From Bryobacterales bacterium (GTDB lineage Bacteria > Acidobacteriota > Terriglobia > Bryobacterales > UBA6623): DNA of 64,000 nucleotides. The number at the start of each line of letters is the position of its first letter. The first letter of the stretch is position 1. Shown here in pieces: positions 17,060 to 45,203 of this stretch. Both the position numbers and the translations under genes were made by a program. Location: contig CBDEGU010000011.1 of NCBI GenBank assembly GCA_965238045.1, positions 474,281 to 538,280 on the forward strand. The letters are read 5' to 3'. The notes beneath the pieces were generated by a model. That model was not told the DNA's origin. It ran no database searches and saw only the letters and a program-made list of their open reading frames with translations.

Positions 17060-17136
<77 letters not shown>

Positions 17137-38321: not shown

Positions 38322-39569
38322 TCAGACGGCACCGCCCGAGACATCGCGGACCGTCACCTTCGGGTTGAGATGGGCGACGCCGGTGAACGCGCGATCGTCC
38401 ATCACTCGAAAGGTCAGCACGTCGTCGAGCCAGTCATGACTATAGCCCTCGGCGTTCTGGCCCGCGACCGTCAGCGTGTACTCCTGGGGCGCCAGCCATG
38501 CCTCGAAGGCAAACTCCACCTCGACAGCGTCCCCCGCGCGGCGCGGGCCGATGGCAGTTTTCTCGATTGCGGTGTTGGTTCCGTAGACATCGAGACCGGT
38601 TCGCGTACGAATGAGAATGCCGACCATGGGGCTGGGCTGCGGGGAGTGGAAGCGGCAGGCGATCTTGATTCTGACCCGGTCGCCCGCCTGCATCGCGCGG
38701 CAAGCGCGGCCGTGAGCATCGAGCAACTCGACAGCGGTGATCTCGGCGCCGCGGTCGCCGTGCCGGTGGCTGGGATCGAGCTTCGCGCCGGACGGCTCCT
38801 CGCCGGCGTCGCCGGCCCGGGGTGCGGAGAGTTCGAACTCGCGCTGCCGCTCGAGCACGGTCCCCACATAACGGTTCACGACCGTACTGGGATCGCCCTG
38901 TTCCTCAATCTGGCCGTCGAGCAGGAATACGGCGCGGTTGCAAATCTGCTTGACCAGTCCCAGGTCGTGGGAGACGAAAACGACCGTGACGCCGGCCTCC
39001 TGAAGCTCCCGAAACTTGCGGATACAGCGGTTGGCGAAGACTGCGTCGCCGACGGCCAGCACTTCGTCGACGATGAGAATATCGGGCTCGACATGAATCG
39101 CGGTGGAAAACGCCAGCCGCACGTACATGCCGCTGGAATAGGTTTTCACCGGGCGCTCGATGAACTCGCCGATGCCCGCGAAGCGTTCAATCGAGGGCAT
39201 CGAGCGCTCGATTTCCGCGCGGCTCAGCCCCATGATTTCGCCGTTGATATGGACGTTTTCCCGCCCGCTGCATTCGGGATTGAAACCGGCGCCGAGTTCC
39301 AGAAGCGCCGCCACCCGACCCTCGCGGCGTACGCCGCCCGTGGTCGGCTCGATAATGCCGGAGAGGATTTGCAGCAGCGTGCTTTTGCCGCCGCCGTTGG
39401 GCCCGATGACGCCGAGCGTCTCGCCCGGCTCGACGCTCACGCTGACGCCGCGCAACGCCCAGAAATCCTCATGAAACGAGCGGCGGCCGAAACAGAGCGC
39501 CTCTTTCAGCCGGTCCACCGGCTGACTGTAAATCTGGTAGACCTTCGAGATGTTATCAGCAACCAGCAC
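38322..39569 (-). CDS. Polysaccharide ABC exporter ATPase with Wzt C-terminal domain
   Basis: GPNGGGKST, YSSGMYVRLAF, IVDEVLAVGD; C-terminal Ig-like carbohydrate-binding domain. Confidence 0.92.
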   Translation of the reverse strand: MLVADNISKVYQIYSQPVDRLKEALCFGRRSFHEDFWALRGVSVSVEPGETLGVIGPNGGGKSTLLQILSGIIEPTTGGVRREGRVAALLELGAGFNPECSGRENVHINGEIMGLSRAEIERSMPSIERFAGIGEFIERPVKTYSSGMYVRLAFSTAIHVEPDILIVDEVLAVGDAVFANRCIRKFRELQEAGVTVVFVSHDLGLVKQICNRAVFLLDGQIEEQGDPSTVVNRYVGTVLERQREFELSAPRAGDAGEEPSGAKLDPSHRHGDRGAEITAVELLDAHGRACRAMQAGDRVRIKIACRFHSPQPSPMVGILIRTRTGLDVYGTNTAIEKTAIGPRRAGDAVEVEFAFEAWLAPQEYTLTVAGQNAEGYSHDWLDDVLTFRVMDDRAFTGVAHLNPKVTVRDVSGGAV

Positions 39570-39902: not shown

Positions 39903-40148
39903 CTAACGGACGAGGCCACGCAGACGAATCACTTTGGCCAACAGCACAAGCGCCGCGACATGAAAGGCTGGAATGATCACGAATCCGATTTGCACGACGC
40001 GCCACTCCAGTGCGAGGTCCGGCTCGCCATGCCATATGTCGGTTAGGGCCAGCTAAGTCAGCAGCACGGCGAAGGCCGAGAGAACACCGAGAGTCGCGGT
40101 CGCCGCGATCATCGGATCCAGTTTTCGCAAAGCGTCTCCGATTTTCAT
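39903..40148 (-). pseudogene. Small two-TM membrane protein interrupted by an in-frame TAG
   Basis: MKIGDALRKLDPMIAATATLGVLSAFAVLLT*LALTDIWHGEPDLALEWRVVQIGFVIIPAFHVAALVLLAKVIRLRGLVR; stop at 40053-40055. Confidence 0.65.
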
Positions 40149-40438
40149 GCGTCCACTTTACCGCACCGCTTTGCCGCACCGCGGCGCAAGCCCGGGGCGG
40201 CAACCTTCTTGCGACGAGCTCGGTCTCGATCTGGCGTCTCAGACTGTTGAGATGTCCTGGATGCTCTCTCGTCACTCGCGAAGCCGCCCGGAGATCGTTT
40301 CAACCTTGGCAAGTGCGTTTCCAGCGAAACGTTAAACACCTTGCATGGGACCTCCAGCGCGAAAACATGCTGATTGTCCCCCTGGCCCCGTTTCTGCCGT
40401 GGCCTGCTGCGCCCGTCGGCCGCTACAGAGTCAAGAAT

Positions 40439-40484
40439 TGGCAATCGGGGCAATCGGGGCAATCGGGGTCGGCAATCGGGGTCA
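40439..40484 (+). repeat. GGCAATCGG tandem repeat ending in GGGGTCA (REP-like)
   Basis: ggcaatcgg x4; partner inverted accccgat near 40594-40601. Confidence 0.6.
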
Positions 40485-40584
40485 GGAAGCTGTGAAGAAA
40501 TCAACTTGCCGCAGAATCCAGTGCTGCAAGCAAAGGACTTAGCTCGACGAAAAGAGGTCGAAAGGCAATTAACTCACACCTTCC
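40485..40584. mobile_element. 100-bp IS5-like MITE
   Basis: Ends ggaagctgtgaagaa and rc ggaaggtgtgagttaa resemble the IS5 IR GGAAGGTGCGAA. Confidence 0.5.
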
Positions 40585-41045
40585 AGCTCCCGAACCCCGA
40601 TCCAGCAGCTGCGGGAGCGGCCTCAGGCCCACCCGCGGACCTGCCAAAACCAGCCCCGGCGCCCATTGGGGTCACAACATTCCTAACAATTTATCTGCTG
40701 CATTTTGAATGCTTTACCCGCGCCGATCCGCGTCCAACCGCCCACCCCCAAGGTATCCTAGAACTGTCAGACACCCGCGCGGCACCCGGCCTGCAACCGG
40801 CGTCCGCCGTCGGCGATCGGGTCCAATACCGAAGGTGCCGCCATCCGTCCTGACCACCCGCGCCGCGGGGCGCAAACTCATTCCCGCCAGCCGCCGAGGC
40901 CCCTTCGTCCCAGGCATTCCCACACCAAAAGGAAAAGCAGCAATGCCAAAGAAAGCAACAAAAGCTCAAATACGATCCAACTGCGAAAACGCGAAAAATC
41001 CGCCGCCCCCCAGCTCACCACCAAGCATCCAACCCAGCGCAACCA

Positions 41046-41823
41046 GCAAAACAAGAACTACCAAACAGACCCAATCTCTCCGAACCGCAGTCAAATCAGT
41101 ATCTTACAACGCGGTCCCGATCCCGCCCCCAGCAGCACCGCCGAGATCCCAGGGCGAGGCATGGCGTCCGGCTTCCGTAGCGCCGGCCTCGAAGAGACCC
41201 GCGGCTTCTCCCGGCCCAACAAACCATCAATCCCCCCGCTCCCGCCCGGCCTCCCGCCAACCCCCAGCCTCAGCCTCAAAGCGCCAAAATCGAACTACCA
41301 AACAGACCCAATCTCGCCGAACCCATCTACATTACCAACTTGCCGACCCACGATCTCCGAGCACCCGTAGCGTGGATCTCGGTTTTGAGATCCGCGGCTT
41401 TTCCCACCCCAGGAACCATGAATCCTCTGCGAATCCTCCGCGCCCCCATTCACCCCCGGCCTGCCGCCAAGCCCCAACCCCGTCCCAGACCGCCAAAATC
41501 GAACTGCCAAACGAACCCATCTCGCCGAACCTCATCGAAATCAGCGTCTTAGTCAGCGCCCACCCTTGACGTGCCGCACGTCTCCAGGGGTGTCGTGTCG
41601 CCATTCCTGGCGACATATCTTACCCGCACAACCGCATAATCTCTCGACCTTGCACCCGCCGCCAGTCGCCAAACCGGTATGCCAAACAAACCCAATTCCC
41701 AAAAACCAATCCAGACCCACATCTCACGGCCACCTGCCCCGGACCGCATCGCGGATCTCCCCCGCGGTCGCGGCAATCGAAAACCACCGTAGCGCGGAGA
41801 TCGAAGAGACCCGCGGTTTTTCC
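41046..41823 (+). repeat. Degenerate array of ~175-240-bp units
   Basis: gaactRccaaac(a)gacccaatctc-type motif at 41055, 41292, 41501 and 41681 (partial); a solo copy at 18385. Confidence 0.8.
41367..41404 (+). repeat. GTAG-type REP hairpin
   Basis: GTAG-cgtggatctc-ggtttt-gagatccgcg-gcttttcc; variants at 41177 and 41789. Confidence 0.75.
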
Positions 41824-41864
41824 TAGCCCGCCGAGCGATTGATCCCCCAATCCCCCGCGCCCGC

Positions 41865-41956
41865 CAAGCTCCGTAGGAGCGACACATCGAACAGCCTGGG
41901 GCGTGAGCCCCAGGACCACAGGCCGAAAACAGTCAGCCCCGGCAGGGGCGGCACAC
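41865..41956. repeat. REP-like triple-hairpin element
   Basis: gctcc-gta-ggagc, cctgggg-cgtgag-ccccagg, gcccc-ggca-ggggc. Confidence 0.55.
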
Positions 41957-42149
41957 CCCCCTTCACCACAAATACCGCTCATCGGGCCGCGGAATCCACC
42001 GCTGGAATTCCCCGCTGGAATCCCCGGTACCGAAACCCCAAATCCCCCGACCCTCCTGTCACAACAAACCACCCCCGCCAAATCAACAACATACCCGAAA
42101 AACACCCCAAAACACTTGACACCCCGTGCTAGCCTATACCCGTAACGAC

Positions 42150-42455
42150 CGGAAAGGATAGATCACCGCGATCCCCCGACCGTTTCCTGGCCAGGACAGA
42201 AAGCTCGCCCCGCGGTTCATCACCTCCTCGAATCACAGAGGAGAGGGTGACCGCCAAGGCGAGTCTTCGGACAGCTCTCGAAGGTGGACATCCACCGCGA
42301 AGGGCTACGAGCGCAGTCGTGCACCATCGCCGCGCGGAACAACTGCGCGGAGCGGCCGCGCGAGAGAACCCTTCGCCCGGAACCGCCTGCAACTTCCGGC
42401 TGGGGCGGCTCGCCGGGATCACATAGTCGGAACGAGAAGCGTCTCTCACTTTTTT
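42150..42455 (+). ncRNA. Candidate structured non-coding RNA (unassigned)
   Basis: Several nested stems closed by gatccc/gggatc, a cUUCGg loop, and a final hairpin plus T6; no credible ORF. Confidence 0.45.
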
Positions 42456-43095
42456 GAAATTGTTTTGAATCTGAAAAAGAAGCACCGCGAAGAACGAAGC
42501 TAGCAAGCCCAGCCAGCCAGCAACCTCAGCCAGTCACCTAACCCATCCGCTAGACCAAGCAGTGGCGCTAGGGCGAGATACCGTCGAGCCCCTCAACCCG
42601 CCCATAGCCACCAAACATCCGAAAAACCGGGCAAATCCCGGCAAAAACGACGCCCAAGAGCCTTTCTCCGACCCAACCTCAGCCGCTTCCCTCACAAAAA
42701 AAACTAAAAAAATCGCCAAAAACCGGGCATTTCCGGACAAAAGCGCACCCGGCCGGTTCGCTCGGCTGCAACGACAGGACTGAAGCAACCGCCACCAGCA
42801 CCGCTTCCAACGGGCCACCGAGCACCGTGATATGATTTCTGCCATGCGCATTTGCGGGTCTTTGCTGCTAGCTTTGTTGCTCCCCATGGCCGCCAGGCTC
42901 TCGACGCCGCCACCGGCTCAGGCCCAAGCGGCGTAAACTACAGGTTCCGGAGAGCCGCTTGTTTCAACGGAATTCCGGACATCCTCCGGCCGGGTTCCAT
43001 GTGCGCGCGGAGGTCGGGGGCAGCTCCCGAACTGTGGGGGAATACAGGCGTTTTCTGCTGAGCCATGGCTCGTGTGGTGGCGGCGGGGGGCCGCA

Positions 43096-43133
43096 GGAAA
43101 AGCCGCGGATCTCAAAACCGAGATCCGCGCTAC
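43096..43133 (-). repeat. GTAG-type REP hairpin (reverse copy)
   Basis: rc gtagcgcggatctcggttttgagatccgcggcttttcc; 1 mismatch to the 41367 copy. Confidence 0.78.
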
Positions 43134-43442
43134 GGGTCGGCTATCTCGACAGTGTCCGTGAGCGTCGCGGCGGAGCGCCGTTACGCTGCTCGGCTATTGC
43201 CTGATGAGGAGTCACGCCCGTCTGGTGGCGAGCCCCGAGCGCCCCGATTCGCTCGCTTGCGCCACGGGGCAGGGGTCTGGCCGGCGGAACGGGAATGGCC
43301 GGTTTTCTGTCGACATTTTAGACTCTCGATCACGTTCAACTACAAGTGTTTGTCGCCGGAGTTTTCCGCCGGGATAGACGCCTCGAGGCGCAGAATGCGC
43401 TGGGCAGCCACTCTGAGGGGGTACGGGGGCGTTGCGGGGTTG

Positions 43443-44930
43443 CTAGTCGTCGATGCGGCGGGGGACTAGGGGCTGGGTGGCTTCCATGGCTCGCATCTGG
43501 TCGAGGGTGATGTCTTCGCCTTGCTCGTGATACTCCTGGTCTACGTTCACCTTCCAGAGGTCGTAGCGGGCGCCGAGAATGTTGCGCACCGCCAGCATGG
43601 AGGTGAGCATGGAGTGGTCCTGGTTGTTGTAGCGGTGCATGCCGTTGCGGCCGACGAGCTGCAGGTTGGGCAGTTTGGCGAGAAAGGCGCGCATGATGTC
43701 CATCGCGGCGGCGTAGTCGCGATCGTAGATGGGATAGGCTTTGCGCATACGAACGACCGCGCCGTCGGTGACGTCCGCCGGATCGGCCAACTCTAGCTGG
43801 CCGATCTCGCGCTTGCCCCGCTCGATGAGATCTTCGTCGGAACTGGACCAGAGGGAGTCGCCCTCGAAGCAGAAATACTCCAACCCCAGACAGGAAGTTT
43901 CGGGGTCGGGGACCATTTCCGGACTCCAATTGCCGAAATTCTGGATGCGGCCCATGGCGACGGCGGAATCGTGGATGTAGATCCAGTTGTCGGGAAAGAG
44001 ACCGGTCCGGCGAAGAATTAACGCCACGGTGAGAAAGTCGCGGTAACGCAGACGCCGGGCGGCTTCGAGAATTTCCGGAGGCGGAGCGGGCGAGAGCGCC
44101 TCAATGAGATCGAGCACGGCGATGCTGCTGATAAAATGCCGTCCGGCGTAGGAGCGGCCTCCGGCCTCGATGCGCCCCACGCCGGTTTCGTCCCAATGAA
44201 TCCGGGTCACTGGAGACTTCATGACGACCGACGAGCCCATGTGCTCGACGAGTTCGGTGGTGCGTTCCCACATCATGCCGGGGCCGTGGCGGGGATAGGC
44301 AAACTCGTCAATGAGAGTCTTGACGACATCGCCGCGGCGTTTGGCGGTCTCTCCAAAAATGGCGTTCTTAATGGCGGTGGCGAGGGAGAGTCCTTGGATG
44401 CGCTGCGCGGCCCATTCGGCCTGGATCTTGTCGCATGGTATGCCCCAGACCTTCTCTGTATAAGTGCGGAAGAAGATCTCAAAGAGGCGGCGGCCGAAAC
44501 GGTTCGAGATCCAGGTGGCGAAATCGTCCTCGGGCAGCTGAGGCGAAAGGCGCGCCATGCCATAGCTGGCGATACATCGCACGGTCTCGAAGATGCCCAA
44601 GCCGGTGAGGGCGTTGAGGGGCTTGAGCGGATAGGAGAAAAACTTGCCGTTGTAGTGGATGCGGGAAAGACGCGATCGCTGGAGAAGATCGTCGCCAAGA
44701 ATCTCGTGCCAGAGCTTTTCGACCGCCGGAACCTTGGTGAAAAATCGGTGGCCGCCGATGTCAAAGCGGTAGCCCTTGTAGAGGACGGTTTTCGATAAAC
44801 CGCCAACGGTATCGCCGGCTTCGAGCGTTGTGGAGGTGAGGCCGGCCTTAGCGAGTTCGTAGGCCGCGGTGAGTCCGGCCGGGCCAGCGCCGAGGATGAC
44901 TACGGGAATGACTGCGGGGGTTGGTTCCAC
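43443..44930 (-). CDS. FAD-dependent oxidoreductase (HemY/UDP-galactopyranose mutase-like)
   Basis: ILGAGPAGLTAA, FDIGGHRFF, YTEKVWG, GRNGMHRYNNQDHSM. Confidence 0.88.
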   Translation of the reverse strand: MEPTPAVIPVVILGAGPAGLTAAYELAKAGLTSTTLEAGDTVGGLSKTVLYKGYRFDIGGHRFFTKVPAVEKLWHEILGDDLLQRSRLSRIHYNGKFFSYPLKPLNALTGLGIFETVRCIASYGMARLSPQLPEDDFATWISNRFGRRLFEIFFRTYTEKVWGIPCDKIQAEWAAQRIQGLSLATAIKNAIFGETAKRRGDVVKTLIDEFAYPRHGPGMMWERTTELVEHMGSSVVMKSPVTRIHWDETGVGRIEAGGRSYAGRHFISSIAVLDLIEALSPAPPPEILEAARRLRYRDFLTVALILRRTGLFPDNWIYIHDSAVAMGRIQNFGNWSPEMVPDPETSCLGLEYFCFEGDSLWSSSDEDLIERGKREIGQLELADPADVTDGAVVRMRKAYPIYDRDYAAAMDIMRAFLAKLPNLQLVGRNGMHRYNNQDHSMLTSMLAVRNILGARYDLWKVNVDQEYHEQGEDITLDQMRAMEATQPLVPRRIDD

Positions 44931-45126
44931 GGAAAACTCATATGGTAACAGAGCGCTAGATGGGGGGGCGCCGGATGGGGGGCGGCGGATGGGGGGCGGC
45001 GGGGACTTTTTACTTTGCGCAAAAGGCGGACTTGCTACTTTGCGCTGAGCTGGTTTGTGGTCTGGTTGACGCACGACGGGCAAGCTGGCCACAATAAGGG
45101 CTGGCCCGGAAATTTCCACTTGCAGT

Positions 45127-45203
45127 GCGCCCGTAGCTCAGATGGATAGAGCGCTTGCCTCCGGAGCAAGAGGTCGCGCGTTCGAATCGCGCCGGGCGTA
45201 CCA
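45127..45203 (+). tRNA. tRNA-Arg (CCG)
   Basis: gcgcccg/cgggcgt acceptor, cttgc-ctccgga-gcaag anticodon arm, ttcgaat, CCA; TTGACG-18-CACAAT upstream. Confidence 0.97.

Follow-up and report, generated by a model that had tools for sequence, protein, structure and literature searches.

A multicopy structured RNA on a mobile-like cassette without open reading frames in a Bryobacterales genome

We analysed a 64,000-nucleotide (nt) stretch of a Bryobacterales genome (the window), centring on an RNA predicted at 42143-42455 of its + strand. It lies in an island between genes for a Wzt-type ABC ATPase and a flavin amine-oxidase-like protein, and belongs to an RNA family with a conserved fold, which is carried in many copies and in few genera on a cassette of constant layout with no linked gene (Table 1). 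The evidence supports a real, uncatalogued, multicopy, probably independently transcribed structured RNA on a mobile-like cassette that lacks an open reading frame (ORF), and from it we infer a function and a mode of spread. An earlier note, made from the letters alone, had proposed an undescribed RNA of about 300 nt here, in a gene-free island. The stretch does hold no long ORF, but the locus is not unique and forms one member of a repeat family. When 40000-45000 was queried against its own genome (6.6 Mb in 12 contigs, 91% complete; labelled G000), BLAST cover was 2-52-fold over 40425-43150 and 1-fold outside it. The + strand of the island is C/A-rich, with a GC skew of -0.2 to -0.4. The proposed absence of a convincing ORF was borne out: the longest frames overlapping 42150-42455 are 125 amino acids (- strand) and 59 amino acids (+ strand), and no Pfam domain was found in the seven ORFs in or beside the island (11 ORFs tested).

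The unit 42058-42459 (402 nt) has 44 copies of at least 250 nt in its own genome by BLAST, which are 83-100% (mostly 91-95%) identical. Eighteen alignments begin exactly at 42058 and many finish at 42459. Five sub-segments of the unit all return the same 44 full matches, so there is no partial or autonomous relative in this genome, and the flanks of the copies fall into a few recurring types. Covariance models of the 5' half (R1) and the 3' half of the RNA, whose automatic structures differ from the final fold, were used for detection. R1 gave 43 matches in the source genome. Among 77 genomes from its family, it detected the RNA in 10 (the source included), with 5-43 matches each. The carriers belong to four of 12 genera, namely g1, g6 (4/4 genomes), g10 (3/3) and g11 (2/7). 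Two sister families gave no RNA in 71 and 7 genomes, respectively, in a survey that found it in 7 of 72 genomes of its own family, which is not proof of absence. A pattern with 20 specified bases retrieved 45 metagenome loci, 39 of which match R1, and had no match in viral contigs; plasmids gave no BLAST match. A 17-base pattern run over genome contigs returned 106 stretches, almost all of them chance matches in unrelated phyla; four hold the RNA, and their record titles read 'MAG: Bryobacterales bacterium'. The DNA runs with matches are labelled as marine (seawater, marine, hydrothermal vent).

The fold was evaluated on an alignment of 39 full-length copies (11 from the source genome, 15 from g6, 8 from g10 and 5 from g11), with controls in which the 3' partners were slid by 1-3 columns and with 500 column shuffles. 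Standard pairs occupy 86.1% of 1320 cells versus 35.8-45.0% in the slid versions, and both sides change in 19 of 35 pairs versus 6-12. None of the 500 shuffles reached the covariation score, a count that should not be read as a probability, given related sequences from no more than four genera. Most of the compensatory changes fall in P2, P4, P5 and P7. The conserved core comprises P1, P2, a long-range P3 that closes a junction with P4 and P5, and P7, leaving the peripheral arms free to vary. All four pairs of P2 change on both sides (stem variants CCC/GGG, CCA/TGG, CTT/AAG and TTT/AAA), 97.9% of its cells pair and its GGCC loop is almost invariant. P3, a long-range helix absent from the earlier list of stems, has the shared form GCUCUCCG with CGGGAGC; 86% of its cells pair and two of seven pairs change on both sides. 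P4, whose form across the 39 copies is GCGGACGG with CCGUCCGC, pairs in 93% of cells and has five of eight pairs changing on both sides. The corresponding fractions are five of six pairs in P5, whose paired share of 78.5% is low because of the alignment register, and three of four in P7. P1 is neither supported nor rejected by covariation, since its three pairs in the centre never vary; a single outer pair shows wobble changes.

Outside the core the RNA is far less constant. Exact 13-mers of the core are common to about 40-46 places in the genome and those of the arms to 1-25. The length of the arm enclosed by P4 varies between about 30 and about 300 nt from copy to copy. In relatives, REP hairpins (repetitive extragenic palindromes) or hairpin modules in tandem are found as insertions within or at this arm, which behaves as an expansion segment; in the metagenome copy L180:17-478 it consists of four tandem 43-nt hairpin modules (GGCGCAAGCTCTTAGCGTGCC...). 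The extra arm inserted after P2 is absent from g6, g10 and g11, and one of the 44 copies in the source genome (C11:351790) lacks most of it. Across these 44 copies the arm stays paired mainly by means of U:A/U:G and C:G/U:G switches, and many of the changes in the 39-copy alignment are of these kinds too. Such switches preserve pairing on the + strand only and so point to constraint on a + strand RNA, not on duplex DNA.

All of the features listed in the earlier note are present in the sequence, and the alignment separates them. The palindromic hairpin (P2) and the terminal hairpin (P7) are conserved and covary. The outer stem GATCCC/GGGATC spans 6 bp here but only 3-4 bp elsewhere, without covariation support: one of five pairs changes on both sides, and sliding by +1 scores better. 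The long arm and the UUCG hairpin are restricted to the genus of the source genome, and their pairing is kept among its copies. The letters of AGCTCT/AGGGCT and CCGGAA/TTCCGG are there, but these stems stand in competition with P4 and P5, lack an equivalent in the other genera and are probably not native. Folding was better than chance on the + strand only: 42140-42460 gave a minimum free energy of -138.7 kcal/mol (z -4.18, with none of 100 dinucleotide shuffles as good), compared with a z of -1.36 on the - strand (9 of 100 as good).

Upstream of all copies in the four genera is the motif TTGACA-N7/8-TAnnnT, in which TAnnnT is mostly preceded by TG. The TTGACA with an imperfect -10 spacing that had been noticed here is this motif, its -10-like partner lying just 8 nt downstream here and 7-8 nt across the genera. 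A perfect TTGACA at this distance is too close for a canonical -35, and it may be an operator or a lineage-specific form of promoter. The spacing differs from the canonical 17 nt and a consensus sigma-70 scan (16-18 nt spacer) reported no promoter, and for these reasons we infer the start at about 42143; cross-genus conservation begins at about 42144. The RNA would be about 310 nt long here and 210-460 nt in relatives. At its end, the U run after P7 is present in the source genome and in the g6 genomes G015, G053 and G054, and absent from G005 and from g10. A simple terminator scan missed the terminal hairpin because its stem is just four pairs here.

Expression was looked up in assembled contigs from four RNA libraries of three studies (from 24 public runs). 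Contigs spanning 42130-42210, 42156-42319, 42235-42451 and 42373-42455 together cover 42130-42455, and cover of 41741-42116 is zero in all four runs. Their identity of 88-99% to the stretch indicates that they come from relatives, and they hint at expression of the cassette RNA. The proposal of a stand-alone transcribed RNA gains support from the promoter motif in four genera, the lack of a common downstream gene and contigs that stop at the predicted ends.

The RNA belongs to no catalogued class that we could find. Across the whole window, Rfam 15 at gathering thresholds reports solely two tRNAs and the Acido-Lenti-1 motif. In a permissive E-value scan of 41500-43300 the best overlap was mir-3150, whose 26 bits fall short of its gathering score of 100, and Rfam had no match on the RNA at four relatives' loci. 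The Rfam families so covered include RNase P, tmRNA, SRP, 6S, HEARO, omega RNA, bridge RNA and ribozymes. The RNA can accordingly be called undescribed, as proposed, and the absence of Rfam matches agrees with the earlier view that it has no RNase P, tmRNA or SRP character; the RNase P RNA sits elsewhere in the genome (C9:177596-178007). It is also not described in the full-text literature searched. The RNA has no linked protein gene in cis. ORFs were clustered around the 44 copies in the source genome (within 5 kb), 33 copies in relatives (within 1.5 kb) and 35 metagenome copies (within 2 kb); no common neighbour emerged, the clusters being spurious frames over repeats and two abundant insertion sequences (ISs). 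One low-copy cassette variant sits between ordinary genes for a tetratricopeptide repeat protein and a glucose/sorbosone dehydrogenase.

The borders of the cassette are clearest in relatives. In g6 and g10, similarity between copies starts at (G)TCAC, about 85-100 nt above the predicted RNA start, and the preceding DNA is unique to each locus. The right end is formed by the terminal hairpin plus, in g6, TTTTTTTGAA (hairpin, T-run and GAA in the copies inspected), beyond which the DNA again differs per locus. By eye, 20 g6 and g10 copies have no terminal inverted repeats (beyond about 5-9 nt) and no target duplication, and the same ends have a hairpin 9 nt from the right terminus and no clear hairpin on the left. 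No GTAG hairpin is found at the ends. In 10 of 14 g6 copies the flank preceding (G)TCAC has GA as its last letters, a motif too short to be judged. The RNA is on the C-rich strand in 27 of 44 copies by local GC skew, a measure that is weak, island-biased and uninformative.

Cassette copies sit in non-coding islands together with REP hairpins, genes or fragments of REP-associated tyrosine transposases (RAYTs), and Acido-Lenti-1. A 5' GTAG hairpin is the hallmark of REP sequences. The genome has 35 strict copies of the REP found here. At 18 of the 44 cassette loci such REPs, 20 in all, share the orientation of the cassette and are no more than 3 kb upstream of it. In the window, an inverted pair of these 42-nt REPs brackets 1.7 kb containing the RNA, and a RAYT-like fragment lies just beyond the right-hand REP. 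This fragment corresponds to residues 45-84 of a Y1 protein at C9:196769 (62.5% identity, E 1e-7 by tblastn); at 40 amino acids it has no Pfam or NCBIfam match, being too short alone. Pfam Y1_Tnp has nine matches in the genome, to which tblastn adds further fragments. An intact gene at C12:1119192-1119779 matches NCBIfam NF047646 ('REP-associated tyrosine transposase') with 108 bits (cut-off 80). Two GTAG-hairpin REPs bracket this gene, and a cassette divergent from it is 125 nt away. In genome G019 a 58%-identical RAYT lies 257 nt from an RNA copy, likewise divergent and REP-bracketed. Homologues of at least 68% identity occur solely in the RNA-positive genomes G015, G054, G056 and G058, and include exactly the two of seven g11 genomes that hold the RNA.

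Of the 26 genome matches of Acido-Lenti-1, 18 are on the strand opposite to a cassette and 130-190 nt upstream of it, so that the placement of the motif in this genome is not random. A g10-type metagenome contig repeats the arrangement (L196:1104-1158). The part in a mobile system with the adjacent repeats that had been suggested for the RNA thus gains from the 44 dispersed copies, from discrete ORF-less insertions in relatives and from co-location with REP, RAYT and Acido-Lenti-1. Two other elements share this genome with the cassette. A 1448-bp IS with GAGATTGTCCC... ends has 83 BLAST matches (E 1e-20), 40 of which were inspected and are nearly all 99-100% identical; its copy at G000 C12:1217424-1218933 splits a further RNA cassette, with a duplication of about 8 bp. 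A 1037-bp IS1595-family element has about 108 copies and lies within 5 kb of 12 of the 44 cassettes, versus about 7.5 expected from its density.

Table 1. Positions of the cassette, its RNA and the surrounding features in the window.
Feature	Position	Strand	Basis or remark
Wzt-type ABC ATPase gene, nearest real gene on one side	38322-39569	-	
Gene-free island, all modules recurring elsewhere in the genome	40425-43150	n/a	BLAST cover and GC skew
REP-type hairpin, 5' GTAG (ACCCGTAGCGTGGATCTC...GAGATCCGCGG)	41363-41404	+	
Acido-Lenti-1 (RF01687), divergent from the cassette	41867-41914	-	43 bits, gathering 37
Core repeated cassette: upstream box, promoter, RNA, terminal hairpin	42058-42459	+	BLAST against own genome
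Upstream box starting GTCAC, left end of the cassette in relatives	42058-42115	+	onset of similarity in g6/g10
Promoter-like TTGACA, 8 nt, TG-preceded TAGCCT (extended -10, TGnTAnnnT)	42116-42135	+	
TTGACA	42116-42121	+	sequence
Predicted RNA, about 310 nt; putative start 7-9 nt after the -10, end in T run	42143-42455	+	
P1 hairpin CCGG...CCG, conserved loop GGAnnGATC	42149-42169	+	alignment
GATCCC/GGGATC outer stem	42170-42175 / 42415-42420	+	sequence
P2 hairpin TCCT-GGCC-AGGA (RNA UCCU-GGCC-AGGA)	42185-42196	+	covariation
Palindrome TCCTGGCCAGGA	42185-42196	+	sequence
Genus-specific extra arm, 60-nt hairpin and UUCG hairpin, inserted after P2	42204-42272	+	
Long arm CTCGCC/GGCGAG, GCGGT/ACCGC, CTCCTC/GAGGAG	42204-42263	+	sequence
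GTC-TTCG-GAC hairpin	42263-42272	+	sequence
P3 5' strand GCTCTCGA	42274-42281	+	pairs with 42426-42433; closes multi-helix core
GGTGG/CCACC	42283-42296	+	sequence
P4: GCGAAGGG 42297-42304 with CCCTTCGC 42369-42376	42297-42376	+	encloses hypervariable arm 42305-42368
P5 hairpin: ACCGCC 42382-42387 with GGCGG 42404-42408, conserved pyrimidine-rich loop	42382-42408	+	
P3 3' strand	42426-42433	+	pairs with 42274-42281
P7 terminal hairpin GAGA-AGCG-TCTC, then CAC and T6, terminator-like	42434-42455	+	
GAGA-AGCG-TCTC hairpin; T6	42434-42445; 42450-42455	+	sequence
Same REP hairpin in inverted orientation, at the island's right edge	43096-43137	-	42 nt, 98% complementary
RAYT-like (IS200-type Y1) transposase gene fragment, 40 codons	43165-43284	+	tblastn
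Flavin amine-oxidase-like gene, nearest real gene on the other side	43443-45119	-	
tRNA gene	17060-17132	+	Rfam, 73.7 bits
tRNA gene	45127-45200	+	Rfam, 66.6 bits

Further features of the region lie outside the cassette. A C/A-rich module occurs three times in tandem at 41040-41531, with spacings of 237 and 209 nt; each unit ends near a hairpin followed by GCTTTTCC, and these may be further small transcription units. At 42846-42938 there is a signal-peptide-like ORF of 31 codons (MRICGSLLLALLLPMAARLSTPPPAQAQAA) with a small hairpin behind it, and the RNA-library contigs over 42894-42991 have the deepest cover of all (up to 131.8) and continue into unlike sequence; this is accordingly another repeated, apparently expressed motif. 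A gap of 8 nt separates the tRNA gene at 45127-45200 from the start of the amine-oxidase-like gene, which is on the opposite strand.

Taken with a probability of about 0.6, our preferred reading is that the cassette is a non-autonomous mobile or duplicative element and that its selected payload is a trans-acting folded RNA. The transcript from 42143-42455 would then belong to a new family of non-coding RNAs that have a complex fold and are independently transcribed, and whose cassette multiplies as a DNA element without coding for its own mobiliser. A REP-associated Y1 transposase supplied in trans would be the leading candidate for that role, because the ends resemble those of single-strand (HUH/Y1) elements and the islands are rich in REPs and RAYTs. 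The payload may act as a folded RNA or as a ribonucleoprotein (RNP), serving as a protein scaffold or decoy, or as a catalytic RNA. Since the junction strands and the GGCC loop are invariant and the arms expand freely, an RNP scaffold, a self-associating RNA or a ribozyme would seem to fit better than a seed-type small RNA (sRNA). A more ambitious version, in which an RNA-centred ORF-less cassette borrows REP/RAYT single-strand transposition and forms one functional system with the REPs and Acido-Lenti-1, its RNA being an RNP scaffold, a ribozyme or an RNA that self-assembles through the GGCC loop, strikes us as doubtful. If true, it would provide the first non-coding RNA partner of a RAYT; to our knowledge no such partner is known, and a literature search gave nothing relevant among the first 10 matches listed.

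Several observations weigh against the preferred reading. As to transcription, none of 21 RNA-library records reaches 99% identity to the stretch, one contig continues to 42550, and contigs are blind to strand, ends and level, while RNA libraries can hold DNA. As to the fold, P1 varies too little for covariation, and covariation does not support the pairing GATCCC/GGGATC as a conserved pseudoknot. As to mobility, no clean empty site was found when two G015 left flanks were compared with G054, G005 and G053 (one of these flanks is orthologous in G005, where the right flank is not collinear). In the source genome the flanks are mosaic repeats of few types, so segmental duplication with recombination could explain its copies, whose high identity may reflect recent amplification or gene conversion and not selection on each copy. 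The link to RAYTs is loosened by six of nine Y1 loci examined having no RNA within 2.5 kb, and by the absence of any RAYT within 2 kb of the 35 metagenome copies or 1.5 kb of the 33 relatives' copies. The RNA-positive genomes G005, G009 and G053 have no close RAYT homologue at E 1e-25, RAYT homologues of 51-60% identity are present without the RNA in g2 (7/7) and g4, and a second Y1 subfamily occurs in 31 of 77 genomes; co-occurrence of RAYT and RNA may simply be the shared mobilome of related genomes. The evidence for constraint from orthologous loci appears mixed. At a cleanly orthologous G015/G054 locus the RNA is identical at 227 of 227 positions and about 1030 nt of flank are about 96% identical, from which about eight changes would be expected in the RNA. 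In the pair L142/L154, whose orthology is partial, conservation of the RNA (96.5%) does not exceed that of the right flank (91-97.5%).

How far other explanations compete with a mobile cassette carrying a folded RNA depends on the same data. The copies could be sibling sRNAs, that is, paralogous, trans-acting, mRNA-pairing regulators that were duplicated and have no mobility of their own. Each copy does have its own promoter motif and terminal hairpin amid differing neighbours, and multicopy sRNA families are known; LhrC1-5 of Listeria are said to be paralogous, separately transcribed small RNA genes of this kind. Such families consist of 5-7 copies of seed-type sRNAs of about 100 nt, whereas here up to 44 RNAs of 210-460 nt form a closed multi-helix junction. 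Invariance is seen in the strands of the junction and in the palindromic GGCC loop, and no variable guide or seed is apparent, which makes a base-pairing role less likely. A search for trans targets by 13-mers, limited to exact identity or complementarity, found none beyond the RNA's own copies. The sharp, insertion-like ends in relatives and the patchy occurrence in two of seven g11 genomes also fit a mobile element better, and we consider the sRNA explanation unlikely. At the other extreme the RNA would be functionless and the cassette a DNA-level repeat, akin to a miniature inverted-repeat transposable element (MITE) or a REP, whose hairpins serve single-strand transposition by a Y1/HUH enzyme. 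Its setting among REP and RAYT sequences suits this idea, and P2 and P7 are perfect 12-nt palindromes in DNA. The lack of terminal inverted repeats and target duplications separates the cassette from a classical, DDE-mobilised MITE and would be expected of a non-autonomous IS200/IS605 (Y1 HUH) element. Elements of that type have subterminal hairpins at both ends and a fixed short target 5' of the left end; here a hairpin was seen near the right terminus, as in such elements, and no convincing one at the left. Yet the folding is strand-specific, and many of the changes that preserve G:U pairs would read as C·A mismatches in the complementary strand. Hairpins for end recognition would not need the covariation of P3 and P4 across 150-350 nt, the promoter motif is kept across genera and the RNA-library contigs stop at the ends of the RNA. 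A functionless RNA is on these grounds quite improbable.

The mobile cassette could also carry the guide or cofactor RNA of a transposon nuclease or recombinase acting in trans, as in the omega RNAs of TnpB and IscB or the bridge RNA of IS110, the copies seen here being ORF-less ones. The lifestyle is similar: HEARO/omega RNA elements reportedly (Weinberg 2009; Altae-Tran 2021) comprise structured RNAs of about 300 nt in up to dozens of copies per genome, with a patchy, mobile-like distribution and some copies without an ORF. The cassette RNA differs from them in having no sequence or structure match, no adjacent nuclease ORF in the copies examined and no flank-derived guide; since promoter and terminal hairpin lie inside the cassette, none could be transcribed. 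No hypervariable guide-like segment exists among the 44 copies, in which both transcript ends are conserved and variation is confined to hairpin arms. One candidate for a bridge-RNA guide, an 11-nt identity shared by the left flank and 42170-42180, did not hold: this piece of the RNA never varies and the flanks are of two unrelated types. An omega RNA of TnpB would be encoded at, or overlap, the 3' end of tnpB. The TnpB domain PF07282 is absent from G000 (91% complete), from the three g10 and from the seven g11 genomes, and present in one of four g6 genomes, which largely refutes the TnpB version. RRXRR (IscB) had no matches, the control genomes being likewise silent. Unlike an IS110 bridge RNA, the cassette is not beside a DEDD recombinase gene; none of the 44 copies comes closer than 30 kb to any of the three IS110 genes (PF01548; C11:163796, C9:310414 and C11:631091). 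The missing Rfam match also tells against this explanation, given that the Rfam annotation, as described in one part of a preprint (10.64898/2026.10.21.760802), takes in bridge RNA and omega RNA families. With TnpB not found, IS110 distant and no guide-like segment, identity with an omega or bridge RNA is unlikely, and a guide or cofactor role in general is given very little credence. A cis-acting leader (riboswitch or attenuator) of a downstream gene would account for a structured RNA with a terminator-like hairpin at its end; what lies downstream differs between copies, is non-coding repeat DNA here and includes no consistent gene, so that this explanation is refuted.

Placed beside known systems, the mobile cassette with its folded RNA is closest in setting to REP/RAYT (REPIN) elements, in which a hairpin of 20-40 nt with a 5' GTAG is mobilised by a RAYT. 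It shares islands with GTAG REPs and RAYTs, and close RAYT homologues co-occur with the RNA; it is nevertheless not a REP, being 330-560 bp long, with no GTAG end hairpin, with its own promoter and with a long-range RNA fold. Acido-Lenti-1, which has a table row in Weinberg 2010 (PMC2864571), is likewise multicopy, occurs in the same phylum and is physically linked to the cassette. As a 46-nt two-hairpin motif on the other strand it is a different RNA, and it is distributed far more widely (Acidobacteria, Lentisphaerae). The TwoAYGGAY motif of Pseudomonas is described, in a passage of a preprint (bioRxiv 10.64898/2026.09.22.753630), as a strain-variable structured RNA repeat with median copy numbers of 11-23 and up to 202 copies. 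According to that passage it resembles the cassette RNA as a structured RNA motif behaving as a genomic repeat, and differs in being much smaller and often arranged as divergent doublets; the passage describes no promoter/terminator cassette or multi-helix junction.

Large, complex-folded bacterial RNAs outside the catalogued families are rare, and past examples have led to ribozymes, mobile-element guide RNAs and RNA-only assemblies. For a first description, the comparative support is unusually good: 39 copies could be aligned across four genera, the promoter motif is conserved, and marine metatranscriptomes hint at expression. Up to 44 copies per genome imply either a high dosage of the RNA or selfish spread. 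Its linkage to REP, RAYT and Acido-Lenti-1 offers a testable handle on the roles of RAYT/REP systems and of Acido-Lenti-1 itself. For annotation, the family accounts for about 44 'gene-free islands' in the source genome and for many contig breaks in related metagenome assemblies.

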